Shown: in pieces, positions 2,930 to 29,023 of the stretch | How the letters are laid out: each line of letters begins with the position of its first letter | Position numbering within the stretch: position 1 is the first letter of the stretch | Origin: Saprospiraceae bacterium | GTDB lineage: Bacteria; Bacteroidota; Bacteroidia; Chitinophagales; Saprospiraceae | DNA length: 64,000 bases | Reading direction: 5' to 3' | NCBI GenBank assembly: GCA_047629355.1 | Contig: JBLHWU010000002.1 | Span: forward strand, 948-64,947 | Notes under the pieces: generated by a model | What the model was told of the DNA's origin: nothing | Seen by the model: the letters and a program-made list of their open reading frames with translations, nothing else | The model's database searches: none | Translations under genes and position numbers: made by a program

Positions 2930-3204
2930 CGATGAATATTAGCAGATTACAAAAAGGCGTAGCCTTGACACCATTTGTAGAAATGGTCAATGGCAATTCC
3001 AAAAGTGGCGTAGCCACGATACCGTTTGTAACAACAAATGAATATCGATTGCAAAAGTGGCCTAGCCACGGCACTTTGCATACTTGACCGCTAATTTATA
3101 AATCGTCTTTAAATGAAAAAGTGATGTAAATGTGCCGTAGCGATGCTACTAATTTAACGTTTTAACCCCCATTCCTACAAACGGTATCGTGGCGATGCCA
3201 CTTT
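2897..3204. repeat. REP-like array: four direct copies (about 2897, 2951, 3001, 3053) then two inverted copies (about 3128, 3175)
   Basis: Unit is about 30 bp: AAAAG + 5-bp stem / 3-nt loop / 5-bp stem + spacer + TTTGTA. Stems co-vary (GTGGC..GCCAC, GAGGC..GCCTC, AAGGC..GCCTT). The first copy overlaps the cusA stop codon. Confidence 0.75.
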
Positions 3205-3222
3205 GAAATAACACCATTTATA

Positions 3223-3674: not shown

Positions 3675-3748
3675 GTAGTTTTTGTAAAAATAAAATAAAA
3701 ATGTTTGGACAAAAAAAAATAAAAATTAATAAAATATTGAGTGATTTA

Positions 3749-3820
3749 GTGCCGAAGCTACGCTTCTTTGAGCTATTCCGTAAATGTTTCTACAAACAGT
3801 ATCGAGGCGATGCCTCTTTT
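3749..3820 (-). repeat. Two more inverted REP-like copies on the other side of the RAYT remnant
   Basis: gtgccGAAGCtacGCTTCtttgag (about 3749-3773) and ctacaaacagtatcGAGGCgatGCCTCtttt (3790-3820). Same architecture as the 2897-3204 array. Confidence 0.65.
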
Positions 3821-3859
3821 ATTGACAGAAATATTGGAAAAATTAATAGGGTTTTTATA

Positions 3860-5074
3860 ATGTCAATTTTCGTACTAATTAAGATTAACGGATTATCCGC
3901 TCAATCTTTAAATGAATTATTGACAATCGCCAACACCAATAATTTAGACCTAAAAATCCTTGAATCCAACTACCGTGCTGCTTTAGAAAAAGCGCCGCAA
4001 GTCAGTCAACTACCTGACCCCGAAATTGGTCTTGGTGCTTTCCCTTTGCCGGTCGAAACACGGTTGGGAGCGCAAATTTTTCGGGCAAGTGCCACGCAGA
4101 TGTTTCCATGGAAAGGGGTTTTGGAGGGTAAAAATAATTTAGAATTAGCGAAAGCCAAAGCCATTTATGAAAAGATAGCAGTACGGCAGTTAACGCTACA
4201 TTTTCAAGTAAAAAAAGCCTGGTTGAAACTGTACGAATTGGAAAAAAGCAAAGCCATTATTGAGCGCAATTTAATCTTGTTAGATGCACTGGATAAGCTG
4301 GCTTTAGCCAAAGTAGAAAGTGGAAAAGCAAGTGCTGCTGATGTCCTACGGGTTCAGCTAAAAACCACGGAATTAGAACAAGAATTAGCTATTTTGGAAA
4401 CGGCAAAAAGTAAACCGATTGCAAGTATCAACCAACTCTTAAACCGTCCGATTGATACACCCATTTTCATAAAAGACAGCCTTGATTTTGCCATCATTCC
4501 TTTTCAAAAAGATACCTTGATGGCGAATATTCAAGCCAATCATCCGATGATTAAAATGTTTGAATTGCAGCAAAAAATATCAGAAGAAGCCATTAAAGTG
4601 AATACTTTGAATAACAAACCGACTTTCGGCGTAGGACTTGATTACATCATGGTCAATGAAAGAAGCGATGCAAATCCATCAGGAAATGGGCGGGACATTG
4701 TACAACTTCGAGGAATGGTGAAAATACCGCTATATCGTCAAAAATATGAAGCTAAAGAACGGGAAGAACAGCTAAAGATAGCTGCTTTGGATGACCAAAA
4801 AGAAAACGTAATAGGAACTTATTTAGCAGAAATTGAAAAGGCGTATTCAGATTATAAATCTGCTCAATTGAGCGTAAATTTATATCAGCAACAAGTGGAA
4901 ACTACCAAGGCAGTCTTGAATATCTTGGAATCCAAATATAGTGCTGACGGTAATAATTTTGATGAATTGCTACGATTGGAAAAAGAATTAATTGACTATG
5001 ATTTAAAAACGCTAAAAGCGATTGTTCATAGTCATTTAGCGAAATATAAAATTGAACAATTTATAACACTTTAA
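3860..5074 (+). CDS. TolC/CusC-like outer-membrane efflux factor
   Basis: I take the start at ATG 3860 (MSIFVLIKINGLSAQ signal). The upstream part of track ORF 3524.. overlaps the RAYT remnant and REP copies. Sequence is typical of an OMF (SLNELLTIANTNNLDLKILESNYRAALEKA...PDPEIGLGAFPLPVETRLGAQ). Confidence 0.85.
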   Translation: MSIFVLIKINGLSAQSLNELLTIANTNNLDLKILESNYRAALEKAPQVSQLPDPEIGLGAFPLPVETRLGAQIFRASATQMFPWKGVLEGKNNLELAKAKAIYEKIAVRQLTLHFQVKKAWLKLYELEKSKAIIERNLILLDALDKLALAKVESGKASAADVLRVQLKTTELEQELAILETAKSKPIASINQLLNRPIDTPIFIKDSLDFAIIPFQKDTLMANIQANHPMIKMFELQQKISEEAIKVNTLNNKPTFGVGLDYIMVNERSDANPSGNGRDIVQLRGMVKIPLYRQKYEAKEREEQLKIAALDDQKENVIGTYLAEIEKAYSDYKSAQLSVNLYQQQVETTKAVLNILESKYSADGNNFDELLRLEKELIDYDLKTLKAIVHSHLAKYKIEQFITL

Positions 5075-5076
5075 CC

Positions 5077-5286
5077 ATGAGGTACAAGCGAAAAAAGAAA
5101 AAGCAACCACCTCAAAAGAAAACCAATCCGCAAGATAAACGGACAGAATGGATTGTCATTTTAGTTATTGCCATTTTGACAATTATTGGCCTATTGACTT
5201 CCTTTCTTTTTTTTAAAGGTTTTGAAGGAACGGAAAAAGACAAAAATTTTAACAAATTTGAAATTCAAGAAGATGCAAATAAATAA
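5077..5286 (+). CDS. Small Lys-rich single-pass membrane protein, hypothetical
   Basis: The ATG lies 2 nt after the OMF stop and the 3' end overlaps the cusB start by 14 nt, a translational-coupling geometry. It has one clear TM helix (WIVILVIAILTIIGLLTSFLFF). I recognise no family. Confidence 0.4.
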   Translation: MRYKRKKKKQPPQKKTNPQDKRTEWIVILVIAILTIIGLLTSFLFFKGFEGTEKDKNFNKFEIQEDANK

Positions 5287-7039
5287 AAAAATCATTGGGA
5301 CAGCTATCGTTGCGGTTATCATTGGCTTGGGATTAGGATATTTGATTTTTGGCAATCAAAACACCAGAAAACCACTTACTGAAAACCATCAACATGGGAT
5401 GGAAAAAGAAGCCTCGCCAATACCAAATGCTGAAGAAATTTGGACTTGTTCCATGCACCCCCAAATCCGACAACCAGAATCTGGGGATTGTGCGATTTGC
5501 GGAATGGATTTAATTTTGTTGGAGGAAAATACCTCTGACGACCCCTTAGTTTTGCAAATGACTAAATCTGCCGTAAAATTAGCAAATATTCAAACCACAA
5601 CGGTCGGTAAATCAACGATAGAAACTGGCTCAACGATGCGACTATCTGGCAAGGTACAAGCCGATGAACGACGGGCGTCTTCCCAAGTTGCGCATGTAGC
5701 AGGGCGCATTGAAAAACTCTATGTTACGTTCACCAGCGAACAAGTAAATAAAGGTCAAAAGCTGGCAGAAATTTACTCACCAGATTTGATTTCAGCACAA
5801 AGAGAATTGTTAGAAGCCTTGAAATTGCAAGACTTAAACCCTGACTTAGTAGAAGCCACAAGGAAAAAATTGCGGTATTTAAAAATCAGTAATTCCACCA
5901 TCCAAAACATCGAAGATAAAGGAAGTATTCAAGAAACCTTTACCCTTTATGCGGATGCATCGGGCATTGTGAGTGACCGTAAAGTTTCCGTTGGTGACTA
6001 TATAGCTAAAGGCGAACCGTTATTTCACCTGATGAATCTGTCTCAAGTTTGGGTACTGTTTGATGCTTATGAGGAAGCATTAGGGCACATAAAAAAAGGC
6101 GATAAAATTGAATTTACGACCCCTTCCATCTCTAATAAAACGTTTACGACAAGCATCACTTTTATTGACCCAATTATTGACCCAATGACGCGAGTCGTTT
6201 CGTTGAGAACGGAAGTCAGAAATTCCAGTCGTTTACTAAAACCTGAAATGTTGGTGTATGGCATTTTAAAAAATAAAGGGCTGCAAAATAAAACCTTGAC
6301 CGTGCCAAAATCTGCCGTTTTGTGGACGGGTAAACGCTCGGTGGTTTATGTTAAAGTACCGGATACAGAGATTCCTTCTTACCAATTTCGGGAAGTGCAA
6401 TTGGGCGAAGGAACGGGTAATGGATATCCAATAATGAGTGGTTTGGAAGCAGGCGAACAAGTGGTTACCAATGGAAGTTTCACCATTGATGCGGCGGCAC
6501 AACTCAACAATCAGGCAAGTATGATGAACCGAAATGTGACCATAAAGAAGGAGAAAGTAGGCATTCCTAATTTTCAAAAGGAAACACCTGATGTATTCAA
6601 AAAACAGTTGAATGAAGTTACCAACGCCTACATCCAACTGAAGGATGCTTTAGTTGCAACGGATGGAAGAAAAGCCATTCCTACTGCTGAAATAGTAGTG
6701 GCGAGAATCGACATGGTGGATATGAAATTGCTAAAAGGTGATGCCCATATTTATTGGATGGAGCAATTGGACGCCCTGCAAGCACACAGTCAAAAAATAA
6801 CCAAAATAGAAGATATCGAGGAGCAACGCAAGCAATTTGGGTTCCTTTCTACCGCGTTAATCAATTCAATTGAAGCCTTTGGAACAATAGGTAATGCCTT
6901 TTATGTACAACATTGTCCCATGGCATTTGGCAATGAAGGAGCGGATTGGTTGGCGGTGGAAGAAGCGATTCAAAATCCTTATTTTGGAGATAAAATGATG
7001 AAGTGTGGTTTGGTAAAGAAGACATTTTCGAACGAATAA
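5273..7039 (+). CDS. cusB: CusB-like RND periplasmic adaptor with N-terminal HMBD (CxMH...CxxCGM) and C-terminal DUF3347-like domain
   Basis: Start chosen at MQINKKIIGTAIVAVIIGLG (TM anchor). It contains WTCSMHPQIRQPESGDCAICGMDL and an MFP core (LSGKVQADERRASSQVAHVAGRIEKLYV...). The C-terminus matches my memory of DUF3347 (FYVQHCPMAF...ADWL...NPYFG). Confidence 0.85.
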   Translation: MQINKKIIGTAIVAVIIGLGLGYLIFGNQNTRKPLTENHQHGMEKEASPIPNAEEIWTCSMHPQIRQPESGDCAICGMDLILLEENTSDDPLVLQMTKSAVKLANIQTTTVGKSTIETGSTMRLSGKVQADERRASSQVAHVAGRIEKLYVTFTSEQVNKGQKLAEIYSPDLISAQRELLEALKLQDLNPDLVEATRKKLRYLKISNSTIQNIEDKGSIQETFTLYADASGIVSDRKVSVGDYIAKGEPLFHLMNLSQVWVLFDAYEEALGHIKKGDKIEFTTPSISNKTFTTSITFIDPIIDPMTRVVSLRTEVRNSSRLLKPEMLVYGILKNKGLQNKTLTVPKSAVLWTGKRSVVYVKVPDTEIPSYQFREVQLGEGTGNGYPIMSGLEAGEQVVTNGSFTIDAAAQLNNQASMMNRNVTIKKEKVGIPNFQKETPDVFKKQLNEVTNAYIQLKDALVATDGRKAIPTAEIVVARIDMVDMKLLKGDAHIYWMEQLDALQAHSQKITKIEDIEEQRKQFGFLSTALINSIEAFGTIGNAFYVQHCPMAFGNEGADWLAVEEAIQNPYFGDKMMKCGLVKKTFSNE

Positions 7040-7060
7040 ACTTGTTTATAATTCTACCTT

Positions 7061-7220
7061 AGTAACGATAAAATAATAAGTCTGACAAGTTAGACAGTGG
7101 ATAATTTTTCTCAGTTTTTACTTGAAAGAAGGATAATTGTTGATACTTTGACTAATTTCAAGTGAAAAATGAGGGAAATTTGCCCTGTCTAAATGGCGGA
7201 GTTATTTTTTTATCGTTACT
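7061..7220 (+). mobile_element. MITE family A, copy 1 (160 bp)
   Basis: Imperfect terminal inverted repeats of about 35 bp: AGTAACGATAAAATAATAAGTC...GGAGTTATTTTTTTATCGTTACT. A full reverse-complement copy lies at 15684-15841. Confidence 0.85.
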
Positions 7221-7348
7221 TAAGACTCTTGTTTCATTATTTATCAATGAGGAGTTTGAGGGAAAAAATTGGGCATTAATCCCGATTTTTTTCCTCAAAA
7301 CACCCGCCCCGTCGCCTTTGGCGGTTTGCATCAGATTTAAGAGTCTTA
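7221..7348 (+). repeat. Three-hairpin core repeat, copy a
   Basis: TTGAGGGAAAAAA..TTTTTTCCTCAAAA hairpin, then the GC palindrome region (cgccccgtcgcctttggcgg). Bounded by the inverted repeat TAAGACTCTT / AAGAGTCTTA. Confidence 0.7.
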
Positions 7349-7373
7349 AAGTAGAAATAAATACCAGAGAACT

Positions 7374-8342
7374 ATGGATAGTTTAACTCAAGCCGCTTTA
7401 GGTGCAGCCGTTGGAGAGGCAATTTTAGGTAAAAATATTGGGAATAAAGCTGCCATAATAGGTGCTGTCTTAGCAACTATTCCTGACTTGGATGTATTAC
7501 TTACACCATTTTTTTCTGCTTTTGAAAAGATTAGCGTACATCGTGGGTATAGCCATTCCATTTTATTTTGCTTGCTAGGTGGGTTATTATTTGCCTATAT
7601 TTTGAGTAAGATAAAATGGACAAAGTCGGTGCGTTTTCCTCGATTATTTTTGTTAAGTTTTCTGGCTTTGTTTACTCATGTTTTGCTCGATGCTTTTACT
7701 ACTTATGGAACACAATTATTTCTACCTTTTACAGATTGGCGAGTTAGTTTTGATAGCATCAATATTGTTGACCCTGTTTATACGATACCCTTATTGGTTG
7801 GTGTTTTGATGAGTGTTTTTTATTTTAAAAAAACAGCTACTAAAAGAGCGATGCCCAACAATATCGGCTTAATGATTAGTTCTTTATACCTTCTTTTCAC
7901 GCTTGCCAATAAGCAGCATATTGAGCAGGTTTTCAATGCTCAATTAGAAGCAAAGAATATCCCTTCTTTTCGATTGTTGACCGTTCCTGTTGGCATTGGA
8001 AATGTGAATTGGTATGGTGTGGCAAAAGACGAAACACATTTGTACATTGGAAAATACTCGGAGTTAGAACGCAATGAAATTGAATTGGACTCCTTTCCAA
8101 TTAATGACCAATTGTTAGCAGGTTTAGACCCCATTTTGGTAGATAGAATGAAATGGTTTGCGCAGGATTTCTACACGGTCGCTGAAAAAGATGGCAAGAT
8201 TCGGATTTATAATATGCAGTGTGATATGCAGGGCGTAAGAACTTACGGTGACTACAAAGCACCCACAGCTTTTTATTTTGAAATTGAACCGAAAGAGAAT
8301 GGAGCGTATGAATTGAAATCAGGGATGCATCCAAAGCAATAG
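7374..8342 (+). CDS. Membrane-bound metal-dependent hydrolase, YbcI/DUF457-like
   Basis: N-terminus is MDSLTQAALGAAVGEA...ATIPDLDVLL...HRGYSHSILF, with multiple TM segments. This matches my memory of DUF457. Confidence 0.65.
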   Translation: MDSLTQAALGAAVGEAILGKNIGNKAAIIGAVLATIPDLDVLLTPFFSAFEKISVHRGYSHSILFCLLGGLLFAYILSKIKWTKSVRFPRLFLLSFLALFTHVLLDAFTTYGTQLFLPFTDWRVSFDSINIVDPVYTIPLLVGVLMSVFYFKKTATKRAMPNNIGLMISSLYLLFTLANKQHIEQVFNAQLEAKNIPSFRLLTVPVGIGNVNWYGVAKDETHLYIGKYSELERNEIELDSFPINDQLLAGLDPILVDRMKWFAQDFYTVAEKDGKIRIYNMQCDMQGVRTYGDYKAPTAFYFEIEPKENGAYELKSGMHPKQ

Positions 8343-8363
8343 CATTTTGAAAAAAGCAGAATA

Positions 8364-8915
8364 ATGAAAAATGTAAAAATATTAATAAAAAACATGGTTT
8401 GCCCAAGATGTATTCGGGTAGTCAATGATGATTTAACGGCGTTGCAACTGCCTTTGGAAAGAGTAGAAATGGGTATTGTTTGGATGAAAAAGGAATTAAC
8501 CACAAAGCAAGCACAAGCCATGCAAGAAGTTCTGGAAGCCAGTGGTTTTGAAATTATTGAAAATCGGGAAGATGCCTTGGTTGAAGAAATTAAAAAGTTG
8601 ATAACGGAATATCTATTCGGGCAGACCCCAAAAGCAAACTCACTTAACTTCTCTGATTATTTGATGCAAAAAACCAATGTTAATTACGGGCAATTAAGTC
8701 GCTTATTTTCTACGACAACGAGGATGACGATTGAACAATTTATCATTATACAGAAAATTGAACGAGTGAAAGAGTTAATGAAAACTGGCGAAAAAAACTT
8801 ATCTGAAATTAGTTTAGAAATGCAATACAGCAGTCCGCAACATTTGTCTACTCAATTTAAGAAAGTGACGGGCATGACACCAACTGCTTATAAATTGAGA
8901 CAATTGGAAGATTAG
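8364..8915 (+). CDS. AraC/XylS-family transcription regulator with N-terminal HMA-like CxxC domain
   Basis: N-terminus IKNMVCPRCIRVVNDDL...VEMG is ferredoxin-fold HMA-like. The C-terminus is an AraC HTH (EISLEMQYSSPQHLSTQFKKVTGMTPTAYK). It sits directly upstream of copA. Confidence 0.8.
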   Translation: MKNVKILIKNMVCPRCIRVVNDDLTALQLPLERVEMGIVWMKKELTTKQAQAMQEVLEASGFEIIENREDALVEEIKKLITEYLFGQTPKANSLNFSDYLMQKTNVNYGQLSRLFSTTTRMTIEQFIIIQKIERVKELMKTGEKNLSEISLEMQYSSPQHLSTQFKKVTGMTPTAYKLRQLED

Positions 8916-8959
8916 AAAATCATAATCCTATACAATTCAATCAGAATTCTGTACATCGA

Positions 8960-9096
8960 AAAGGGCTGTTTATTTGTTTATCAAAGGGGTTTTAGGAGAG
9001 AGAAAAATTGAATTTTTATAGAAAATTGAATTTTTCTCTCCCCTAAGCCTCCTCCCCTGCCGCCGCAGGCAGCGGGCTGGGTGGTTTTGATCCGTA
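8960..9096 (+). repeat. Three-hairpin core repeat, copy b, filling the araC-copA gap
   Basis: ATCAAAGGGGTTTTAGGAGAGAGAAAAATT..AATTTTTCTCTCCCCTAAGCCTCC then ctgccgccgcaggcagcggg. It ends about 20 bp before the copA ATG. Confidence 0.7.
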
Positions 9097-9118
9097 CATT
9101 TTTAAAAAATAATTAGAC

Positions 9119-18765: not shown

Positions 18766-20946
18766 ATGAAAATTTTATTTACCATTTTCTCCTTTTTGTA
18801 TTGTTGCTCATTGCTACAAGCACAAATCATTTTTCAGGAAGATTTTGAAAATGGTGCCGTTCCCACAGACTGGACAATAACCACCAACGCAACTGATGCA
18901 GGTTGGAATGTTGGTACTGCTGCAAGCCTTTCCAGTCAGGCATTTCCTATTGTCAATAATGGTTCGACCAATGTAGCAGCAACCAATGATGATGCTTGTA
19001 ACTGTGATAAAAGTGAGGAATACTTTATTACTCCAAATATTGATTTAACCGACCAAACTGTCGTTGTTTTAAAATTCGATGCCTTTTACTTAGACAATAC
19101 TTATCAGGGAATTGATGAAGATGTAACTATTGAAATTTCTTTAGACGGTATTAACTGGACGGTTTTGGAAGACCTACACGGACATGGTTCGTGGGACACG
19201 CACATCATTAATTTAAGTGATTATGCGGGGGAATCCAGCGTGCAAATTGGCTTTCGCTACGACGATGGCGGCGGTTGGTTATACGGTTTTGCCATTGATA
19301 ATATTTCGGTAGAAGTTCCTCTAGGACTGGATGCCAATTTGGTAGAAATCAATCAACGAGCGTTTGGTGAAACGGATTTATCATTTCCATTGGGCGGCAT
19401 TATTTTGAATGACGGTGCAACTACTATCACTGATTTAGAAGTGACTTACATCTTAAATGGAGGAACACCTGTGGTTACTCAATTGACAGGCGTAAACATT
19501 GAGGCGTTTGATTATTATACTTTTGATTTATCGAATGCCTGGACACCGAACATGGCGGGAGAATACACGGTGGATATGGAAATTACTGCTGTCAATGGAG
19601 GTATGGATGAAAATCCAACTAACAATTCCGATTCCTTTGAAACAGAAATTTTCGCGCAAGTGACTGTACCTAATAAAATTGAGGAATTTTTGGTTGCTGA
19701 ACCAGTTATTACTGAATTAACCGCAGCTGGACCGTTTTTAAACAAACCAACAGATTTAGATTTCTTTCCCGTATTGGGAAAAGATGAATTGTGGGTAGTC
19801 AACCAGCGAACAGAAGGTGATGGTGGTAGCACTTTGACTATTGCGGATGCCACGGCTGACCCATCGGATTACACCAGTTTAGTAGATGGCAATGCTTGGC
19901 ATTTTATGTCTTTGCCTACAGCAATTGCTTTTAGCGACGATAATTACAATTTCGGAACTTCTCCGGGCGTACAAGATGCCAATCACAATGGCGGAACATT
20001 CACTGGTCCAACGTTATGGTCAAGTGACCTTGATATTTATGCGCAACCTTCGGGTGGGAATGGTAGCCATTTAGACATGTTGCACGGTAGCCCTTTTAGT
20101 ATGGGGATTGCGCACGAAGTGGACAATGTATTTTGGGTATACGACGATTGGAATAAAGACATTGTACGCTACGATTTTGTGGAAGACCACGGACCAGGAA
20201 ATGATGACCACGCAGATGGTATGGTTCGTCGATATGAAAATATTGGTATCAATGCAGATGCAGACATTCCAAATCACATGATTGTTGACAAAGCAACAGG
20301 TTGGTTGTATTTCGTAGATAATGGGAATGACCGAGTGCTGCGATTGGATATTAATTCAGCGACAGGCAGTAATGCATTACCTGGAATCAACGAGCCTTTG
20401 GCAGAGCATTCAAGTATGACAGGATTCAATTATGAAGTCATTATTGAAACAGATTTGGAGCGACCTTGTGGTATCGAAATTTTTGAAAATTATCTCTTGG
20501 TCGGTGATTATGACAATGGTGATATCGTGATTTATGATATGGAAGATGATTTTTTAGAACTCGGACGAATTGCAACTTTAGAAACTGGTTTAACTGGGAT
20601 TAAGGTTGGGCCAGATGGTAATATTTGGTACACCAATCGACTGAATAATACTTTGATGACGGCTGAACCTGGTGACCCAAGTAGCACGACCGATTTGCAA
20701 CAATTGCCAGTAACGATTTATCCAAACCCGACGAATGGTATTGTTTCTTTAAATATTCCTCAATTAGAAACGGGTAAATTATTTAACCTCCAAGTTAATA
20801 ATTCGATTGGACAAACGGTGTTGGTCAAAACTGCATTGAATGGTGTACAAGACTTGAATTTGGAAAATCTACCAAATGGTATTTATCTGCTGAATGTGCA
20901 GGGAGATGACTTTTTTGGGATAAAAAAGGTATTAATTAACCACTAA
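18766..20946 (+). CDS. Secreted protein: N-terminal choice-of-anchor-J/MAM-like domain, NHL-type beta-propeller region, T9SS CTD
   Basis: IFQEDFENGAVPTDWT...GWNVG. Propeller-like blades (WLYFVDNGNDRVLRLD, LLVGDYDNGDIVIYD, GNIWYTNRLNN). CTD: IYPNPTNGIVSLN...GIYLLNVQG. Confidence 0.7.
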   Translation: MKILFTIFSFLYCCSLLQAQIIFQEDFENGAVPTDWTITTNATDAGWNVGTAASLSSQAFPIVNNGSTNVAATNDDACNCDKSEEYFITPNIDLTDQTVVVLKFDAFYLDNTYQGIDEDVTIEISLDGINWTVLEDLHGHGSWDTHIINLSDYAGESSVQIGFRYDDGGGWLYGFAIDNISVEVPLGLDANLVEINQRAFGETDLSFPLGGIILNDGATTITDLEVTYILNGGTPVVTQLTGVNIEAFDYYTFDLSNAWTPNMAGEYTVDMEITAVNGGMDENPTNNSDSFETEIFAQVTVPNKIEEFLVAEPVITELTAAGPFLNKPTDLDFFPVLGKDELWVVNQRTEGDGGSTLTIADATADPSDYTSLVDGNAWHFMSLPTAIAFSDDNYNFGTSPGVQDANHNGGTFTGPTLWSSDLDIYAQPSGGNGSHLDMLHGSPFSMGIAHEVDNVFWVYDDWNKDIVRYDFVEDHGPGNDDHADGMVRRYENIGINADADIPNHMIVDKATGWLYFVDNGNDRVLRLDINSATGSNALPGINEPLAEHSSMTGFNYEVIIETDLERPCGIEIFENYLLVGDYDNGDIVIYDMEDDFLELGRIATLETGLTGIKVGPDGNIWYTNRLNNTLMTAEPGDPSSTTDLQQLPVTIYPNPTNGIVSLNIPQLETGKLFNLQVNNSIGQTVLVKTALNGVQDLNLENLPNGIYLLNVQGDDFFGIKKVLINH

Positions 20947-21026
20947 ATATTAATTCAGAAGCAGTTTTGTTAAGTAATTTTCAAGACTGCTTCCTTTTCT
21001 TTTTTTAACTTTTAAATATTATACAA

Positions 21027-21995
21027 ATGAAGAATTTTTTACTAACTTTTGTAGCAATTATTTGCTTTAGCGTTGGTTCAACCGCACAAAATAACATTCA
21101 ACTGGAAATCAATCATAAGTTAGGCACAGACGATTTCGCCATGAATCAGACTGCTACCAACAACATGGAAAACAATTACTATTACTCGCGTTTGCAATAT
21201 TACATTTCTCAAATTTCTATCGTTCACGATGGCGGTACAGAAACCTTGATGGAAAATACTTACATTTTAGTCAATGCTGCCAATGCCACCCAAGTGGACT
21301 TAGGCGACCACAGTATTGATGCAGTCGAAGGCATCAAATTTTCTATTGGTGTCGAGGAAGCAGTTAATCACAGTGACCCTGCTTCTTGGGCAAATGGGCA
21401 TCCATTAGCTCCAAGTTTCCCGTCAATGCATTGGGGTTGGAATGCAGGCTACCGTTTTATTGCCATTGAAGGCAAAGGTGGTTCGAATTTAGGGCAGACT
21501 TTTCAGTTACACGGTTTAGAAGACATCAACTATTTTCAGACCGAGATAGACTTAACTGCTACATCTGAAAATGGAGCAATTACCATTACTTTAGATGCAG
21601 ATTATGAAAGAGCTTTAGAAAATATTGATGTAGATGGTGGGGTGATTGTTCACGGTAGCACTGCGGAAGCGAAAACAGCTCTTGAAAATTTCCGCGACCA
21701 CGTTTTTAGCGCATCGGGTGTTACTTCAACCGTTGATTTCAGCGAGGTGAATGACTTCCAAATTTTCCCAAATCCAACCGCTAACGGACAAGCAAATTTC
21801 TTGGTCAACAGTACAGAAAATTTGACTTATGAAGTAGCCGTAACCGACGTTTTAGGGCGAAATATTCAGTATTTTCCAGCAGTTCAAAGTAATACTTCGG
21901 TAGTGATGAATTTGGAAAACACAGGCTTGTTTATCGTAAGTTTGATTAAAGAAGGCAAAGCGGTGATTACTAAAAAATTGATGGTCAACTTTTAA
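21027..21995 (+). CDS. MbnP-family (copper-binding, MbnH partner) protein with T9SS CTD
   Basis: The segments LQYYISQISIVHDGG and SMHWGWNAGYRFIAIEGKGG match my memory of MbnP-family sequences. It is followed by di-haem peroxidase genes. CTD: FQIFPNPTANGQANF...GLFIVSLIKEG. Confidence 0.6.
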   Translation: MKNFLLTFVAIICFSVGSTAQNNIQLEINHKLGTDDFAMNQTATNNMENNYYYSRLQYYISQISIVHDGGTETLMENTYILVNAANATQVDLGDHSIDAVEGIKFSIGVEEAVNHSDPASWANGHPLAPSFPSMHWGWNAGYRFIAIEGKGGSNLGQTFQLHGLEDINYFQTEIDLTATSENGAITITLDADYERALENIDVDGGVIVHGSTAEAKTALENFRDHVFSASGVTSTVDFSEVNDFQIFPNPTANGQANFLVNSTENLTYEVAVTDVLGRNIQYFPAVQSNTSVVMNLENTGLFIVSLIKEGKAVITKKLMVNF

Positions 21996-22079
21996 TAATG
22001 ATGAATGATAAATGTTGAATATTTGAAAGCATCGTTATTCATCTGAAATTTATCATTCAACATTTATCATTCAAAAATT

Positions 22080-23111
22080 ATGGCTTTATTAAATTACATA
22101 CGACGGTTTTGCTTTTGGCTACTCATTTTACTGGCGCTGTCCTGTCAAAATGAAAAGAAGGTAATCCCCTCGTATGTACCTTCATTGATGGAAATTCCGC
22201 AAGGGTTTCCATCAATTGATTTTCCTGAAGGGAATGCGTTTTCAGAAACCCGTTGGGCATTGGGAAAGAAACTATTTTTTGACCCCGTAATGTCAGCAAA
22301 TAGTTCGATTAGTTGCGCCACTTGTCACCTTCCCGAATTGGCATTTAGTGACAATCAGGCATTTAGTCCAGGCGTAGAAAATCGACCAGGAACACGCAAT
22401 GCTTCACCACTATTCAACTTGGCATATCATCCTTATTTTACCAGAGAAGGAGGCGTACCAACCTTGGAAATGCAGATTTTAGTCCCTATCCAAGAACACA
22501 ACGAATTTGATTTCAACATTGTCCTAATTGCCGAACGGTTGGCACAAGATAGCACCTACCAAACGATGGCACAATTGGCGTATGACCGCGAACCGGATGC
22601 TTTTGTAATTACCCGTGCCTTAGCGAATTTTGAAAGAAGTTTGCTAAGTGGATATAGCCGATATGACCAGCATTTTAACTATGATTTAGATAAAATCTTG
22701 ACCGCTTCTGAGCTTCGAGGACGCGATTTATTTTTTAGCAAAAAAACGGATTGTGCGAACTGTCACGGTGATTCTAACTTCACCAATTATGATTTTCAAA
22801 ACAATGGTTTGTACGAAAGCTATGAAGATGTCGGACGATTTCGGCTAACGGGATTGGAAGCAGACCGGGCTTTATTCAAAGTCCCAAGTTTGCGAAATAT
22901 TGAATTGACTGCGCCGTATATGCACGATGGTTCAATGGTTTCTTTGGAGGAAATTGTTGACCATTATAATTCCGGCGGTAAAAACAACCCACAAAAAAGC
23001 AATTTGATTCGTCCTCTAAATTTAACTGATTCAGATAAGAATGACCTTGTAAATTTTTTAAAAACGCTAACCGACGAGGCATTTGTTAGCAATCCAATTT
23101 TTCAAAATTAG
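22080..23111 (+). CDS. Di-haem cytochrome c peroxidase family (CCP/MauG/MbnH-like), copy 1
   Basis: Two CxxCH motifs (CATCH, CANCH) and VPSLRNIELTAPYMHDGS. Confidence 0.85.
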   Translation: MALLNYIRRFCFWLLILLALSCQNEKKVIPSYVPSLMEIPQGFPSIDFPEGNAFSETRWALGKKLFFDPVMSANSSISCATCHLPELAFSDNQAFSPGVENRPGTRNASPLFNLAYHPYFTREGGVPTLEMQILVPIQEHNEFDFNIVLIAERLAQDSTYQTMAQLAYDREPDAFVITRALANFERSLLSGYSRYDQHFNYDLDKILTASELRGRDLFFSKKTDCANCHGDSNFTNYDFQNNGLYESYEDVGRFRLTGLEADRALFKVPSLRNIELTAPYMHDGSMVSLEEIVDHYNSGGKNNPQKSNLIRPLNLTDSDKNDLVNFLKTLTDEAFVSNPIFQN

Positions 23112-23128
23112 CTTTTAAATATACCTAT

Positions 23129-24217
23129 ATGTGTAAACTAAAATACTTATTCATTTTCCTATTGAGCACCCTGTTTTTTATTGCTTGTAGTGACGATGAT
23201 ACGTCCGAGGAAGTTATTCTCATTGACGAAACGCCTTATAATTTGGAATATGGCGCATTGCCTGCTCCTACCCTTCCTGCCGATAATCCTTTAACAATAC
23301 AAGGGGTACAATTGGGCAAAATGTTATTTTTTGAAAAACTAATGTCTAAAGATGGTACACAGGCTTGTGCGGATTGTCACCGTCAACCCGATGGTTTTTC
23401 AGATAGCACTCGTTTTTCAATTGGCATAGAAGGATTGCCAGGCAAACGACAGGCGATGCCGATTTTCAACATGGCTTATCATTCGAATGAATTTTTCTGG
23501 GACGGACGGGCTGAATTGCTGCGTGACCAAAGTTTGATGCCGATACAAGACCCCTTAGAAATGAACGAAACTTTAGAAAACGTAATTGCCAAATTGGCGA
23601 ATGAAAAAATGTACCGTAATCAGTTTACACGTGTTTTTGGGTCAGAAGAAATAACGTCAGTAAAGATGTCTTTGGCAATGGAGCAATTCATGTTGAGCAT
23701 CGTTTCTTATGATTCTAAATACGATCAGTATTTGGCTGGAGCAGCAGAATTGACGGAAAGTGAAGCGCGAGGGTTGGCCTTATTTGAGACAGAATACAAT
23801 CCTTTCTTTCCAGAATTTTCGGGAGCAGACTGTGCTCATTGTCACGGTGGAGCTAATTTTGAAAATGACCAATATATGAATAATGGCTTAGATACCGATG
23901 CCAATTTCATGGATATGGGGCGCGAAAATGCTACAGAAGCGGCGGCAGACCGTGCAAAATTTAAAGTCCCTACTTTGAGAAATATAGCGGTTACTGCTCC
24001 ATATATGCACGATGGGCGTTTTCAAACATTAGAGGAGGTTGTTGACCATTATAACGAAGGTATTCAAGAATCTTCTACGGTTGACCCTGCTATTTTAAAT
24101 ACTAAGGATTCAGGATTATTTTTGACGGATGCCGATAAAGTGGATTTGGTTAATTTTTTAAAGACGCTCACGGATGAGACGTTTTTGGGGAATGAGGAGT
24201 ATCGGTCGCCGTTTTAG
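23129..24217 (+). CDS. Di-haem cytochrome c peroxidase family (CCP/MauG/MbnH-like), copy 2, lipoprotein
   Basis: Lipobox FFIACS, two CxxCH motifs (CADCH, CAHCH) and VPTLRNIAVTAPYMHDGR. Confidence 0.85.
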   Translation: MCKLKYLFIFLLSTLFFIACSDDDTSEEVILIDETPYNLEYGALPAPTLPADNPLTIQGVQLGKMLFFEKLMSKDGTQACADCHRQPDGFSDSTRFSIGIEGLPGKRQAMPIFNMAYHSNEFFWDGRAELLRDQSLMPIQDPLEMNETLENVIAKLANEKMYRNQFTRVFGSEEITSVKMSLAMEQFMLSIVSYDSKYDQYLAGAAELTESEARGLALFETEYNPFFPEFSGADCAHCHGGANFENDQYMNNGLDTDANFMDMGRENATEAAADRAKFKVPTLRNIAVTAPYMHDGRFQTLEEVVDHYNEGIQESSTVDPAILNTKDSGLFLTDADKVDLVNFLKTLTDETFLGNEEYRSPF

Positions 24218-24455
24218 TTTTTCTATTAAACGCTAACTTTTCAATCAATATTAACCATAAATTACTGAAAATAATACTATTTATTTTCGCCAGACCACAA
24301 GAGCAATTCATTGAGCTGCTCTTATTTTTAATAAAAAAGAACTATTTTTCTTCCTAAATTTCTCCACTACGGTCAAAAGAATAATTCCTATTTTTCAATT
24401 TGAAAATACTAATTTGCGAAACGCTACTTTGTTTTCATAAAAGAGATAACTAAAA

Positions 24456-24492
24456 GGCTGTATCAAATCATCTTTTGATACAGCCTTTTTTT
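24456..24492 (-). terminator. Hairpin just downstream of the ATP-grasp gene
   Basis: GGCTGTATCAAA..TTTGATACAGCC with T/A runs on both sides. Confidence 0.55.
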
Positions 24493-25466
24493 TAGAATGC
24501 TACTTGCAAAACTTCAAATTCTCGCACAACCTCCGCCTTCAATTCTCCTCCCAAAAAGCGAGCAATTTCCAGCATTCCCTGCCGATGATTACCGAAGACA
24601 GTTTCTGCACCGCTATTATAATTAGTATTGGTATTCACATCATAAACAAAGCGATTGCCTGCCTCATCTTCTGCATATTCCAATGCGCCTATACCAATGT
24701 GGTTTGCAGTTAAAAATTGGGCATATTTTTCTAAGTCTTCATTTTCGTAATCGTCCAAAATAACAAATTTGGACGTATTTTCTGAGTGACCTACGGGGCA
24801 ATGTGCATCTGAAATTTGGCAAGCATCCGCTGGACACAATTCAAACCCTTTACTTGCATCAATGCTGACGGCATATAAAAATTTACCACCCACAAATTCC
24901 GCGCGGACAATGCGTCCGGTGGCTGGTTTAACGTAAGATTGAACCAACCAAATGCCATCCAGCGATTCGCCAATTTGCTGGTTATCAATAGTCTGTTGTA
25001 AACTTTTCAAACTGTGAAATAGTTGAACTCCAGCGCCTTTTCCACCCCGATTGGGCTTTAATATAAACGGAAATTCATTCAGCTGACCGGCCGCTTTCGG
25101 TAGCAATTCGATGTTATTAGCGATGATGGTTTTAGGATATGCAATGTTGAGTTCTTGTAAAGCAAGATACTGCTCGGATTTTCGCAATTCCAATTGCAAA
25201 GCTCGCCGTCCATTGATGACGATGCGCCCGTGTCGTTCTAACCACGCTAAAATATTGGCGGTAAACTCAGGGGCAAAACGATGGTCACGTATGTGAGCGG
25301 AAGCACTCATTCGATTGTAGAAAATACCTTCGGGCGGAATGGAATTCAAATCCAATGTCAGATTATCCACAAACCATTCTTCGTAAGGTAAATTCAATTG
25401 ATTAAAAGCAGCGCGCAGGGGCAATACCCAGTCTTCATTCTCGTGAATGACATAAATTTTTTTCAT
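24492..25466 (-). CDS. ATP-grasp (RimK/glutathione-synthetase-like) ligase, substrate unknown
   Basis: MKKIYVIHENEDW...FILKPNRGGKGAGVQLF...WLVQSYV...VRAEFVGGKFLYAV...ALEYAEDEAGNRFVYDVN is an ATP-grasp fold pattern. Confidence 0.75.
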   Translation of the reverse strand: MKKIYVIHENEDWVLPLRAAFNQLNLPYEEWFVDNLTLDLNSIPPEGIFYNRMSASAHIRDHRFAPEFTANILAWLERHGRIVINGRRALQLELRKSEQYLALQELNIAYPKTIIANNIELLPKAAGQLNEFPFILKPNRGGKGAGVQLFHSLKSLQQTIDNQQIGESLDGIWLVQSYVKPATGRIVRAEFVGGKFLYAVSIDASKGFELCPADACQISDAHCPVGHSENTSKFVILDDYENEDLEKYAQFLTANHIGIGALEYAEDEAGNRFVYDVNTNTNYNSGAETVFGNHRQGMLEIARFLGGELKAEVVREFEVLQVAF

Positions 25467-25496
25467 TGTTTTACGTTTATAAAGTCTAAAAAAAGC

Positions 25497-25530
25497 AAAA
25501 AAAAAGAGCCTATTCGCAACGAATAGGCTC
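25497..25530 (-). terminator. Intrinsic terminator between the Cys5 mini-ORF and the ATP-grasp gene
   Basis: Perfect 11-bp stem GAGCCTATTCG / CGAATAGGCTC with a 3-nt loop (25506-25530). On the minus strand it is followed by nine T (plus-strand A run 25497-25505). Confidence 0.75.
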
Positions 25531-25559
25531 TTTTTTTGATATTTAAAATAAAAAAAATA

Positions 25560-25634
25560 TCAGATAGGCTGTTCGTTAGGAACGGTGGGTTCACAACAAC
25601 AGCAACAAATCACAATATTTGAATATTTTTTCAT
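25560..25634 (-). CDS. Unannotated 24-codon ORF MKKYSNIVICCCCCEPTVPNEQPI (candidate leader peptide or Cys-rich micropeptide)
   Basis: Hand translation of the minus strand: atg aaa aaa tat tca aat att gtg att tgt tgc tgt tgt tgt gaa ccc acc gtt cct aac gaa cag cct atc tga. It is too short for the supplied ORF track. Confidence 0.45.
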   Translation of the reverse strand: MKKYSNIVICCCCCEPTVPNEQPI

Positions 25635-26275
25635 TAAATACGTTTGGTGCAAATTTATAGCCAATTATTGAATAAAGCAATAGCACCGCGAAAAATAATT
25701 TTGCTTTCATCCTTAGTAACGATAAAAAATTCTACTTTTTCAAATGATACTAACTCAACCCGTTGCAAAAAAGGAAAACCAAAAAAACGAGACCCTTCCG
25801 ACTATGATTGGCATTCTAATGCTGAAATGCCTGAGTCTGTAAAAGTCTTTTTGAATAATATGACCGTTGATTTTGACAATAAGATAAGTGCCCCTAAATA
25901 ATCGACACTTTTCGACAGGACTATTTTCCGTTTAAAAAAAAAATATCCTCTGTCAAAAGTGTCGATTATTTAAGGTCACCTACTTAGTGAACTCGGCGGC
26001 TCAACAAAAATCAGCTTAATTTATATTTTAGGGAATATCTCAAGAATTGATAATTTCAACACCATGACCATCGGTATCGAAGCTAAAGGAAAAGAACGCG
26101 ACCGTTTAAGTCAGCCCTTTTTAAAATTTATGCAAGAATTTGGGATTTCAGAAGAACGGATAAAATTTGAAAAAATAAAGTCAGCAGAAGATGAAGACTG
26201 GATTGCTGAAAAAATATGGTATCAAATCAATGTAGAACAACCTGTTTCAAAAAATAGATTTATAAAACCACAAAA

Positions 26276-26314
26276 GCACCAGTCTCTACTTCAACATAGA
26301 AACTGGTGCTTTTT
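26276..26314. terminator. Hairpin downstream of rpmH
   Basis: GCACCAGT..(loop)..ACTGGTGC, flanked by an A run and a T run. Confidence 0.55.
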
Positions 26315-26356
26315 TGTGACCACCCCATCACTCTCCACTAAAACCTAATCACGATA

Positions 26357-26512
26357 CTACTTAGAGTAACGCTCATCAGAAACAGTCAATTTCTTACGAC
26401 CTTTAGCACGACGCTTCGCTATTGTTCGACGACCGTTTTTGCTACTCATACGAGTACGGAATCCATGCTTGTTTGCTCTTTTTCGTTTCGATGGTTGAAA
26501 AGTCCTTTTCAT
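26357..26512 (-). CDS. rpmH: 50S ribosomal protein L34
   Basis: Hand translation gives [51 protein letters not shown], the canonical L34 sequence. It is absent from the ORF track because it is 51 aa. Confidence 0.95.
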
Positions 26513-26526
26513 TATGCTTATTTTTA

Positions 26527-26612
26527 GAAGCCAGAGGTCAGAAGTCAGGAGTCAGATAAGCTATAAAAATTAATTTATACCGTTTTTCTGACTCCTGACT
26601 CCTCGCTCCGGA
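26527..26612. repeat. Inverted repeat built from GTCAG(A/G)AGTCAGGAGTCAGA-type units
   Basis: Arms AGTCAGGAGTCAGA / TCTGACTCCTGACT around an AT-rich loop. A solo arm recurs at about 62278-62308. Confidence 0.7.
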
Positions 26613-26770
26613 CACCTTAGTTTATCAATTTGTGGTGCAAAACGCAGGGTTTGCGCTAAGCGGCTGCAAAAGTAATGCGATTTATTTAAAATCCCAACTA
26701 TTTTTAAACGAATTTTGAATTTAATCTTCACCAAACTTTATACAAGAGTCAGCTATTCAAATCTTTGTTC

Positions 26771-27349
26771 TTAAAATTCAATCACATCAACCTCTAAACT
26801 CAACCGTTGAAAAATCATTTCCAACTCTCCAACGCCCCAAACTTTGACGGACTTACTGGAAATGAAATAATAATCAAAAACAGGCGATGTTTCATTTTCA
26901 TAGACCTTAATTCGTTTGCGAATAACGTCATCGTTGGCATCATCTGCCCGTCCTGAAGACTTCCCGCGTTCCAACAATCTACCAACCAATTCTTCTTCGG
27001 GTACATCTAACAGGACCAATTTAGAAACCTCGTCCTTTCGCTCTGCCAACAAGGCATCTAAGGCTTCACATTGTGGAATCGTACGTGGAAATCCATCAAA
27101 AATATAACCTTTGACATTAGGGTTCTCTTCGACTTTTGTGCGCAACATGCTAATCGTTACGGTATCTGGTACGAGTTCGCCTTTGTCAATATATTTCCGT
27201 GCTTCTAAACCCAATGGCGTGCTGTTTTTCAAATTAAATCGAAACAAATCACCTGTGGAAATGTGCAACAAATCGTATTTGTTGACCAACTTTTCTGCCT
27301 GCGTACCTTTGCCAGAACCTGGAGGGCCGAATAAAATCAGGTTTATCAT
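26771..27349 (-). CDS. adk: Adenylate kinase
   Basis: MINLILFGPPGSGKGTQAEKL...HISTGDLFR...GFPRTIPQ. Confidence 0.95.
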   Translation of the reverse strand: MINLILFGPPGSGKGTQAEKLVNKYDLLHISTGDLFRFNLKNSTPLGLEARKYIDKGELVPDTVTISMLRTKVEENPNVKGYIFDGFPRTIPQCEALDALLAERKDEVSKLVLLDVPEEELVGRLLERGKSSGRADDANDDVIRKRIKVYENETSPVFDYYFISSKSVKVWGVGELEMIFQRLSLEVDVIEF

Positions 27350-27543
27350 AATGTCTTATTATTCATATTTTGAAAATGGAAGTGGCGAAAGTACGGCTTT
27401 TTAAAGGAATTTTTATCGAAAAAATCACCACATTTACGATTTGTAACACTCTTTTGACTTTTCATTAAAAAAGAAAACAAAATTTAAATCAAAAAAACAA
27501 GTTCTTTTTCAATTTAAATTTTGATTCCTATCCTCCATTTTAA

Positions 27544-28779
27544 TTAAGCCCCCATCAACTTATTCAAGGACAACTCCAAGGCCGCCGTTGAAATGTTTGT
27601 CAAATTTGGGCTATAATCGTATACTTTTTGCAATGCTTCTCTAATCGTTTCCGATACATCGCCAAAAATCGCTTCGTCCGTCATCTTCGCATCCGGCTTC
27701 ATCAAATAAGCAAATACCCGCGCCATTCCACAATTGGCAATAAAATCTGGTACGATACTCATCTGCGCATCCGCAAATTTTGCTGTCGGTCCAAAAAATA
27801 TTTTATCGCCCACAAACGGAACGTTAGCACCACAAGAAATCACCTCCATACCGCCTGCAATCATCGCATCGACTTGTCCACGCGTCACCAACTTAGAAGC
27901 AGCACCAGGAATAAAAATATCTGCACCTAAGCTCCAGATTTTTTCGTTAACTTCTTCAAAAGATAGCATATTTTCAAATGCCAATTTATTGCCTTTCTTA
28001 TTGACAAACAAAGCCTTAACTTCTTCTACTCCCAAACCTTCTTCTGAAATAATGCCACCTTCTCTGTCAATAATTCCTATTACTTTTGCACCGAATAAAG
28101 TCAAATAAGAAGCTGCCGCCGAAGCTACATTTCCCCAACCTTGAATGATAATTTTCTTTCCTTCCATTGATTCCTTTCGATAAATATCATAAAAATGCTT
28201 CACCGATTCCGATACACCATAGCCTGTAATCAAATCCGCAACTGCCATTTTATGTTCACCATCTGGAACGTATTTTGGGTCTTCCACAATCTTCGCACAA
28301 CCATATCGCAATTGCCCCAATATCCGAACCGCGGCCCCACTATCTGATTTAAGGTGTCCGCGCACGATACCTTCTTGTGGATGCCACAAGCCAAGGTCTT
28401 CCGTGATTGGAATGACATCTTTTAATTCGTCAACATTTAAATCGCCACCCGTTCCATAGTAATTTTTCAACAATGGAATAACTGCTTTGTACCAACGTTT
28501 CAATACTTCTTCACGGCGTGGGTCACGCGGGTCGAAGTCAATACCTGATTTTGCACCACCGATATCTGGACCACAGACGGAAAATTTAATTTCCATCACT
28601 TTCGCCAATGATACGACTTCGTCTTTGGTCAAGCCTTTTCGCATCCGTGTTCCGCCACCTGCTGCGCCTCCGCGTAAGGAATTGATGACCACCCAACCAC
28701 GAGCATCTGTTTCAGAATCGCTCCATTCGAATACGATTTCTGGTCTTTTTTCTTTATACTTGTTTAATAGATCTTCCAT
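27544..28779 (-). CDS. gdh: Glu/Leu/Phe/Val-family (glutamate) dehydrogenase
   Basis: Start taken at MEDLLNKYKEK. Contains GGAAGGGTRMRKG and KSGIDFDP plus a Rossmann-like GWGNVASAAA. The upstream NRINRINRINRI extension is a translated tandem repeat. Confidence 0.85.
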   Translation of the reverse strand: MEDLLNKYKEKRPEIVFEWSDSETDARGWVVINSLRGGAAGGGTRMRKGLTKDEVVSLAKVMEIKFSVCGPDIGGAKSGIDFDPRDPRREEVLKRWYKAVIPLLKNYYGTGGDLNVDELKDVIPITEDLGLWHPQEGIVRGHLKSDSGAAVRILGQLRYGCAKIVEDPKYVPDGEHKMAVADLITGYGVSESVKHFYDIYRKESMEGKKIIIQGWGNVASAAASYLTLFGAKVIGIIDREGGIISEEGLGVEEVKALFVNKKGNKLAFENMLSFEEVNEKIWSLGADIFIPGAASKLVTRGQVDAMIAGGMEVISCGANVPFVGDKIFFGPTAKFADAQMSIVPDFIANCGMARVFAYLMKPDAKMTDEAIFGDVSETIREALQKVYDYSPNLTNISTAALELSLNKLMGA

Positions 28780-28824
28780 AATTCGATTAATTCGATTAAT
28801 TCGATTAATTCGATTAACTCGATT
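28780..28824. repeat. 9-bp tandem repeat x5 abutting the gdh start codon
   Basis: Plus strand aattcgatt x4 then aactcgatt. Partial inverted copies lie at about 28834-28870. Confidence 0.9.
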
Positions 28825-29023
28825 AGTTTGGACAATCGAAATAATCGAATTAATCCATTTAATCGTGTCAATCAATTTGGTGGTGCGAAATTAATATTTC
28901 TAAAATTCTTATTTACATCCTTTCGTGGGAAATTTTAATGTTTAAATTTGCTGCAATTAAGGATTTCTAAAAATGGTAATCTATATTAACCATTAATCCC
29001 TAATCATTAAACATTCATTTACT

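Follow-up and report, generated by a model that had tools for sequence, protein, structure and literature searches.

We identified a short open reading frame (ORF) with a run of cysteine codons that, together with an intrinsic terminator, directly precedes the gene for an ATP-grasp ligase on the minus strand of a 64-kb stretch of a Saprospiraceae genome (contig JBLHWU010000002.1), referred to here as the window. We consider it likely, with a probability of about 80%, that this region is a ribosome-mediated transcription attenuator, which responds to the level of charged tRNA-Cys and governs expression of the ATP-grasp gene that follows.

The leader and the gene are both read on the minus strand. 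The mini-ORF consists of the codons ATG AAA AAA TAT TCA AAT ATT GTG ATT TGT TGC TGT TGT TGT GAA CCC ACC GTT CCT AAC GAA CAG CCT ATC TGA, and its Cys run is the single occurrence of (TGY)4 in the window (0.16 expected). No further poly-Cys leaders were found in the 64 kb, and no cysteine biosynthesis genes are present among the window genes for comparison. The core of the terminator is a perfect 11-bp stem formed by GAGCCTATTCG (25530..25520) and CGAATAGGCTC (25516..25506), and the ATG of the ATP-grasp gene (25466) follows 30 nt past the T run. A previous interpretation of this DNA, made from the letters alone (the sequence-only reading), had reported the mini-ORF with five Cys codons, the 11-bp hairpin, the nine U and the ATG 30 nt further on, and all of these elements were recovered. 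Because the ATP-grasp gene is followed by a terminator of its own (24452..24489), the unit is monocistronic.

To place this arrangement in a comparative context, we used 160 loci of ATP-grasp homologues from genome and metagenome collections, plus five obtained via exact protein look-up. In 26 loci including the window, the ATP-grasp gene is immediately preceded by a mini-ORF with a Cys run (3–7 Cys) and then a terminator with a GC stem and a T run (those named are the window, L001–L008, L012–L015, L017, L020, L081–L085, L088, L089, L161 and L163). The sequence-only reading had called for a comparison of orthologous loci, and the upstream ORF with its Cys run is kept in 25 of them besides the window. 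The leader-bearing loci belong to Saprospiraceae, Balneola/Balneolaceae, Flavobacteriales and Chitinophagaceae, i.e., to the phyla Bacteroidota and Balneolota. No Cys-run leader was found upstream of the ATP-grasp gene in approximately 130 Firmicutes and Proteobacteria loci; two apparent matches in these phyla are chance, out-of-frame stretches within upstream coding sequence. Across 1.9 Mb of fetched loci (both strands), every mini-ORF with CCC followed by a terminator precedes an ATP-grasp gene and none occurs elsewhere. The leader and the ATP-grasp gene are also kept together through entirely different gene neighbourhoods. The presence of a Cys mini-ORF and terminator upstream of this gene is therefore not due to chance.

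The closest relative of the window locus is L161, whose enzyme is 87% identical. Its leader, MKKYSNIMICCCYELTVPNEQPI, has three Cys, and its promoter-like box, segment 2 (see below) and terminator stem are all unchanged relative to the window. Two Saprospiraceae loci carry a palindromic insert of 100–160 nt, similar to repetitive extragenic palindromic elements, between the terminator and the ATP-grasp ATG (L014:2851-3000 and L002:2902-3000), so the distance between terminator and ATG is not strictly constrained in these loci.

Twenty-two leaders were tabulated (L161 was left out of this table). The Cys frame is open in 22/22 leaders, while stop codons interrupt the +1 frame in 22/22 and the +2 frame in 15/22. 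The leaders contain four to seven Cys per seven codons, with the run starting at codons 10–19 and located at codons 10–25, and the run is interrupted by whole codons only (e.g., CTCCCYCCC, CCTCCC and CCNSCCC). Cysteine is encoded by TGT 83 times and by TGC 41 times. The geometry downstream of the run is constant: 6–16 codons follow it, the stop codon is 23–36 nt from the stem, and the end of the stem is a median of 27 nt from the ATP-grasp ATG (21–27 nt in most loci). The peptides themselves, 23–39 codons in length, cannot be aligned outside the Cys run and their C-termini vary (...EQPI, ...ERSM, ...PNLN, ...MRVRN, ...NELE). Since conservation is limited to the Cys run, its reading frame and the RNA pairings and does not include the peptide, the mini-ORF has the signature of a leader peptide rather than of a functional micropeptide, and we suggest that this unannotated ORF be annotated as a leader peptide rather than as a small protein.

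The RNA pairings were analysed using RNAalifold on 10 alignable related leaders. The consensus structure consists of a hairpin in which the Cys codons (segment 1) pair with a downstream segment (segment 2), hereafter the 1:2 hairpin, and the terminator (segments 3 and 4). Ten pairs have changed on both sides and are nonetheless kept, most of them in the terminator helix. An outer helix joins ACAUAU, just before the Cys run, to AUAUGU/AA, which includes the stop codon, and is 84% paired. This helix accounts at the RNA level for a weak conservation of the peptide (HIA...M, followed by the stop). We also folded each of the 22 leaders in three states. With a ribosome placed on the Cys run, 22/22 leaders sequester half or more of the terminator 5' arm; with a ribosome placed on the stop codon, 0/22 do. 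When the segment following the Cys codons was shuffled (preserving dinucleotides), the sequestered fraction of the arm had a mean of 0.40, compared to 0.64 observed (Wilcoxon p = 1.2e-5). The helix that we specified as antiterminator is 79% paired across the family, compared to 35–52% in slid controls, with three doubly changed pairs. The energies of the antiterminator duplex have a mean z of -1.8 and reach p < 0.05 in 11/22 leaders. The antiterminator signal is solid at the level of the family.

A terminator is present in all tabulated leaders and its sequence, AGCCUUCYC / GRGAAGGCU, is kept across families. In most leaders segment 2 carries GGC, as the terminator 3' arm does, and is complementary to the 5' arm, which corresponds to a classical 2:3 antiterminator. 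Segment 2 is complementary both to the UGY repeats of the Cys run and to the terminator 5' arm, and this explains why the terminator sequence is conserved across families. The double pairing duty of segment 2 is an instructive constraint on the sequence of a terminator.

In the window, the 147-nt leader has a folding energy of -44.7 kcal/mol (z = -8.8 relative to shuffles that preserve dinucleotides). When no ribosome is present, its minimum-energy structure consists of the 1:2 hairpin (z = -3.1) and the terminator. With the 5' part masked, as by a stalled ribosome, and the 3' arm absent, the minimum-energy fold is the antiterminator (-10.4 kcal/mol, z = -2.4), in which segment 2 pairs with the terminator 5' arm through UAACGAA (25578..25572) with UUCGUUG (25523..25517) and through GCCU (25569..25566) with A-G/G-C (25531..25527). 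If a ribosome is placed at the stop codon instead, the rest of the window leader folds with the terminator 5' arm unpaired, which leaves the terminator free to form. The coordinates of these elements are collected in the table below.

Features of the leader and the ATP-grasp gene in the window (coordinates are those of the 64-kb stretch)
Feature	Coordinates	Strand	Details
Promoter-like Bacteroidota -7 box TAAATTTG	25657..25650	minus	15 nt before the ATG of the mini-ORF; TTG another 20 nt upstream
Leader-peptide ORF MKKYSNIVICCCCCEPTVPNEQPI	25634..25560	minus	24 codons plus TGA stop (25562..25560)
Cys run TGT TGC TGT TGT TGT	25607..25593	minus	five successive Cys codons, codons 10-14; proposed stall site when Cys-tRNA is scarce
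1:2 hairpin (anti-antiterminator)	25603..25568	minus	predicted; 25603..25589 (Cys codons 11-14 and GAAC) with GUUCCUAACGAACAGC 25583..25568
Segment 2, antiterminator strand UAACGAAcAGCCU	25578..25566	minus	leader codons 19-23
AT-rich spacer, 29 nt	25559..25531	minus	A7 at its end
Intrinsic terminator (segments 3 and 4)	25537..25499	minus	including A:U extension; A7, GAGCCTATTCG, loop TTG, CGAATAGGCTC, T9
U run of nine T	25505..25497	minus	directly after the stem
Block TAGACTTTATAAACGTA, 17 nt	25488..25472	minus	in the terminator-to-ATG interval; identical in L161 (313-329) and L163 (1479-1495)
ATP-grasp ligase, RimK-like, 324 amino acids	24492..25466	minus	PF08443
3' terminator of the ATP-grasp gene	24489..24452	minus	the gene's own terminator

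These elements suggest the following mechanism. Transcription would start from a Bacteroidota-type promoter, approximately 10 nt before the mini-ORF, and a ribosome would translate the 24-codon leader while RNA polymerase proceeds. If Cys-tRNA is plentiful, the ribosome would reach the UGA codon and cover segment 2, the terminator (25530..25506 and the nine U) would form, and transcription would end approximately 30 nt before the ATP-grasp ATG. If Cys-tRNA is scarce, the ribosome would stall on codons 10–14, occupying segment 1 and freeing segment 2, which could then base-pair with the 5' arm of the terminator while the 3' arm is still untranscribed; the result would be read-through and synthesis of the enzyme. 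If the leader is not translated at all, the Cys codons would pair with segment 2 and the terminator would form.

The regulatory context of orthologues outside the leader-bearing phyla points to the same signal. In Bacilli, the ATP-grasp gene lies second in an operon and overlaps the gene before it; the operon opens with an S-adenosylmethionine (SAM) riboswitch and a luciferase-type monooxygenase similar to SfnG/SsuD. The SAM riboswitch was found upstream in 19 loci, and the monooxygenase is the partner in 28 of 83 upstream neighbours. In two Clostridium loci, a T-box is followed by a symporter of the DAACS family (TcyP-like) and the ATP-grasp gene. This T-box has a UGC (Cys) specifier and a UGGA bulge for the tRNA acceptor, which we take to fit tRNA-Cys with its discriminator base U73. 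The occurrence of SAM riboswitches and a Cys-type T-box before the same enzyme places it in sulfur amino-acid starvation regulons. Together with the poly-Cys leader as proposed, all three devices would switch on their genes in sulfur amino-acid shortage, in agreement with a role of the enzyme in Cys starvation and with the direction of regulation that we propose for the leader. An Rfam scan of the leaderless Bacteroidota loci and the Proteobacteria loci detected no riboswitch.

Three Bacillaceae loci (L044:1502-1842, L055:1232-1625 and L073:1179-1530) have two SAM riboswitches back to back on opposite strands, one before the monooxygenase/ATP-grasp operon and the other before a divergent gene, an arrangement that looks like a small sulfur-regulated divergon.

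Several results weigh against attenuation as we propose it. The foremost is the 17-nt block at 25472..25488, which could act as an internal promoter and allow expression independent of the leader. Four loci with a Bacteroidota-type homologue have no leader (L010, L011, L086 and L019). The pairing score of the antiterminator helix given above is favoured by the choice of structure, which was taken from a member of the alignment. Taken singly, about half of the leaders, that of the window among them, are indistinguishable from shuffles, and folding predicts the 1:2 hairpin for only about half of the 22. In the window the antiterminator duplex has an energy of -7.7 kcal/mol, compared to -5.8 kcal/mol in shuffles (p = 0.18), and the 5' arm is paired to 0.57, compared to 0.47 (p = 0.42). 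The window's own antiterminator is weak, and it faces a very strong terminator (a GC core of 11 bp, lengthened to 18 pairs by the A:U extension, and nine U). Finally, the tie between the enzyme and cysteine is a regulatory association and not biochemistry.

The consensus of the Bacteroidota -7 element is TAnnTTTG. The box TAAATTTG upstream of the window mini-ORF is identical in L161, and a perfect TAnnTTTG is located 12–25 nt upstream of the leader ATG in 6/22 leaders. Since TAnnTTTG is not enriched in the window (91 found compared to 85 expected), we rate this box as promoter-like only. A transcription start near 25645–25642 is predicted from its position. A scan for sigma-70 promoters was discarded, as its sites were no more frequent than in shuffles and its consensus is unsuited to Bacteroidota. 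On the other side of the terminator, the block TAGACTTTATAAACGTA is shared with L161 and with L163, in which the enzyme is 78% identical and the leader has diverged outside these 17 nt. The block is possibly a translation-initiation element or a weak internal promoter. The 21–27 nt between the end of the stem and the ATG in most loci leave no room for a separate promoter, which suggests that the leader ORF, the terminator and the gene share one transcript.

The upstream promoter, mini-ORF and terminator could instead constitute an independent gene for a small RNA (sRNA) or small protein, with the ATP-grasp gene transcribed from its own promoter that overlaps or closely follows the hairpin (e.g., 25472..25488) and their adjacency reflecting conserved synteny without attenuation. 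The terminator is strong and symmetric, with both an A run and a T run, as would suit such a gene, and the identity of the 17-nt block in the window, L161 and L163 also fits. A further point in its favour is a sub-threshold likeness to terminator-bearing sRNAs such as BTnc231. Our Rfam scan of 23500..27500 (E <= 1) returned sub-threshold matches only (ncr1015, BTnc231, Thr_leader, Phe_leader and others), the best of which, to leader and sRNA families, score 25–37 bits against cut-offs of 48–80 bits (Thr_leader and Phe_leader 25–30 bits against 55 bits, BTnc231 31.6 bits against 80.4 bits). These matches occur on both strands and are produced by the palindromic terminator, and the family assignments were rejected. 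The short interval between stem and ATG is insufficient for a -33/-7 promoter plus a 5' untranslated region (UTR), the block contains no TAnnTTTG, and there is no TTTG at the spacing of a -33 element. The unit also follows the ATP-grasp gene through different neighbourhoods, and its segment 2 can pair with the Cys codons as well as with the 5' arm of the terminator, for which an independent gene would have no need. We consider this explanation improbable.

Another explanation, which the sequence-only reading had set beside attenuation, is that the peptide is itself the product: a thiol-rich micropeptide that binds metal next to the copper genes, or a substrate of the ligase. As a substrate or carrier, it would be comparable to LysW for LysX/ArgX, or to the precursor of a ribosomally synthesised and post-translationally modified peptide (RiPP) for graspetide ligases. 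The hairpin would then be a mere terminator of the mini-ORF or would set the stoichiometry of two products. The Cys run is kept over 26 loci, the closest structural relatives of the enzyme (ArgX, LysX, RimK and PsnB) act on small proteins or peptides, and MbnP/MbnH-like copper genes adjoin the unit in the window. However, the peptides have neither a common sequence nor a common length or C-terminus outside the Cys run, and they share no further conserved motif. LysX and RimK-type ligases require a defined C-terminal Glu, and graspetide ligases require conserved core motifs of Thr/Ser/Lys and Asp/Glu; these leaders offer no motif beyond the Cys run. What conservation is left (ACAUAU before the run and AUGUAA at the end) is explained by the paired outer RNA helix. 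Furthermore, the Firmicutes and Proteobacteria orthologues are 50–56% identical and have invariant active-site columns, and the ORF is absent in these approximately 130 loci, so the peptide cannot be a substrate of the enzyme. The copper genes are not neighbours of the unit in other genomes. The evidence favours a leader-peptide attenuator over a micropeptide, which we regard as quite improbable.

The sequence-only reading had also proposed a specific switch in the last codons of the mini-ORF, where segment 2 does lie. The heptamer AGCCTAT occurs at 25570..25564 and again within the terminator 5' arm (25529..25523), and the upstream copy was proposed to compete with the 5' arm for the 3' arm ATAGGCT (25513..25507). 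This version is very improbable: the repeat is real in the window and L161, with an 8-nt equivalent in L014, but it is otherwise unconserved, the pairing is chosen by no minimum-energy fold of the window, most leaders carry the GGC that is complementary to the 5' arm, and a distant competitor would be expected to lose to a 5' arm beside which the 3' arm emerges, unless that arm is already occupied. The regulatory logic of that proposal (read-through upon stalling at Cys codons and termination with a ribosome at the stop codon) is retained in the attenuator described here; its helix is replaced, as the partner of segment 2 is the 5' arm.

Attenuators of this design are well known from the trp, his, pheA, thr, leu and ilv operons of Proteobacteria and from the Bacteroid-trp leader of Bacteroidales. 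Like these, the unit described here has a short ORF in which codons for the sensed amino acid are clustered, a four-segment RNA with mutually exclusive 1:2, 2:3 and 3:4 helices (here predicted), an intrinsic terminator just upstream of the gene, and a stop codon placed such that a terminating ribosome would mask segment 2. Unlike these, it would sense cysteine, it precedes a single uncharacterised ATP-grasp gene rather than a biosynthetic operon, and no Rfam leader family matches it above the gathering score. Compared to the T-box and S-box (SAM-I) control of the same enzyme family in Firmicutes, the signal (shortage of charged Cys-tRNA or of SAM) and the outcome (relief of premature termination) would be the same; there, the RNA binds tRNA or SAM directly and no ribosome stalling is involved.

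The sequence-only reading knew of no described Cys-codon leader. In fact, runs of Cys codons in leader ORFs have been predicted upstream of cys operons in Actinobacteria, where they are not accompanied by a conserved terminator hairpin (PMC1262725). In mycobacteria, poly-Cys leader ORFs have been shown experimentally to be Cys-responsive attenuators of a 'Cys ribulon', and the leader studied in detail, Ms5788A, acts translationally, with the stalled ribosome opening a structure that hides the downstream ribosome-binding site (bioRxiv 10.1101/834739). A Cys-codon upstream ORF with a terminator, uORFC-8-2, has been described upstream of cysS in Rhodobacterales (PMC8632094). The mycobacterial leaders resemble ours in having a Cys run in a very short first ORF and, under our proposal, in sensing Cys-tRNA by ribosome pausing and in raising expression of downstream Cys-related genes, but they are on leaderless mRNAs without a conserved terminator, whereas the leaders described here have a canonical terminator and antiterminator and a predicted short 5' UTR. 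Another parallel is uORFC-8-2, with its Cys codons within the first stem, its terminator stem and U run, and the same proposed logic of Cys stalling leading to read-through. It differs in having two tandem Cys codons at positions 14–15 (here 3–7), in its host lineage (Alphaproteobacteria) and in its target, a cysteinyl-tRNA synthetase gene; no shared sequence was noticed between the two, which were compared by description and not directly. Our literature search found no Cys leader described for Bacteroidota or upstream of this ATP-grasp enzyme. As a classical terminator-based Cys leader attenuator, the unit is of a known kind that is new in its lineage and its target. Few leader-peptide attenuators are known from Bacteroidota and Balneolota, phyla in which regulation is poorly mapped and initiation is not led by Shine-Dalgarno sequences, and the unit would add one that senses cysteine and has a textbook terminator/antiterminator design. 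In Bacteroidota, the poly-Cys leader may belong to a larger group of operons that respond to Cys through sensing by the ribosome.

The regulated protein has more than 7,600 homologues at E <= 1e-10, and its sequence identity stays at approximately 50% or above across Bacteroidota, Firmicutes and Proteobacteria. We carried out the profile search of the ligase that the sequence-only reading had suggested, and it scored below the NCBIfam cut-offs of the RimK/LysX/ArgX families (rimK_fam 61 bits against a cut-off of 143 bits, LysX 44 bits against 276 bits). A sequence search of the PDB returned no match, and our literature search found nothing on this ATP-grasp enzyme. The AlphaFold model is confident and has an ATP-grasp fold (predicted local distance difference test score of 82.8), and its top Foldseek matches are ArgX, LysX and RimK (TM 0.65–0.72, 17–18% identity, E = 1e-15 to 1e-18). 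The enzyme is therefore a member of a distinct, highly conserved and uncharacterised subfamily with a RimK/LysX/ArgX-type fold. Residues 207–230 (window 24777-24848) form a subfamily-specific insert of very low model confidence with the pattern C-P-A-D-x-C ... C-P and invariant Cys211, Cys216 and Cys223. In a Cys-regulated enzyme, this loop may bind metal or be sensitive to redox conditions.

Given its regulatory context, the enzyme is probably the product of a cysteine-starvation gene and acts in cysteine or sulfur salvage. We tentatively propose, at less than even odds, that the subfamily represents an unrecognised cysteine-starvation enzyme that catalyses a new step in cysteine or organosulfur salvage and has come under three unrelated RNA sensors. 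Three independent RNA sensors of sulfur amino-acid status, in three phyla, provide a regulatory function call for this widespread, uncharacterised subfamily and make it a well-defined target for enzymology in cysteine and sulfur scavenging.

In the window, the ATP-grasp unit is convergent with metal-related genes. The copper island noted in the sequence-only reading is real, comprising MbnP and two di-haem peroxidases (21027..24217), although its suggested link to the ATP-grasp gene does not hold, as the neighbours differ in other genomes. The region 18766-24217 encodes a protein with a tail for the type IX secretion system (T9SS), MbnP with a T9SS tail, and two di-haem cytochrome c peroxidases (MbnH-like). 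Further away (17-12921), heavy-metal efflux functions are indicated by CusB/HlyD, outer-membrane efflux, HMA/HMBD and P-type ATPase domains; these domains come from a joint scan of 39 large ORFs in which only the AcrB-type match was assigned to an individual ORF (17-2929).

Upstream of the leader, a stretch of approximately 720 nt without a recognisable gene extends from the rpmH terminator to the leader promoter. It contains a 28-nt inverted repeat (25885-25912 / 25955-25982, 89% complementary, 42-nt spacer), and the plus-strand ORFs 25644-25901 and 26064-26348 have no Pfam or NCBIfam match. Just downstream of rpmH (L34, 26357-26512, minus strand) is a symmetric 20-bp hairpin flanked by an A run and a T run (26269-26316), which is probably a bidirectional terminator. 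The longest reading of a glutamate-dehydrogenase-like ORF (27544-28875, minus strand) opens with a tandem repeat (28760-28830) with the translation NRVNRINRINRINRI; translation probably begins at the downstream Met, and the repeat itself is probably intergenic.

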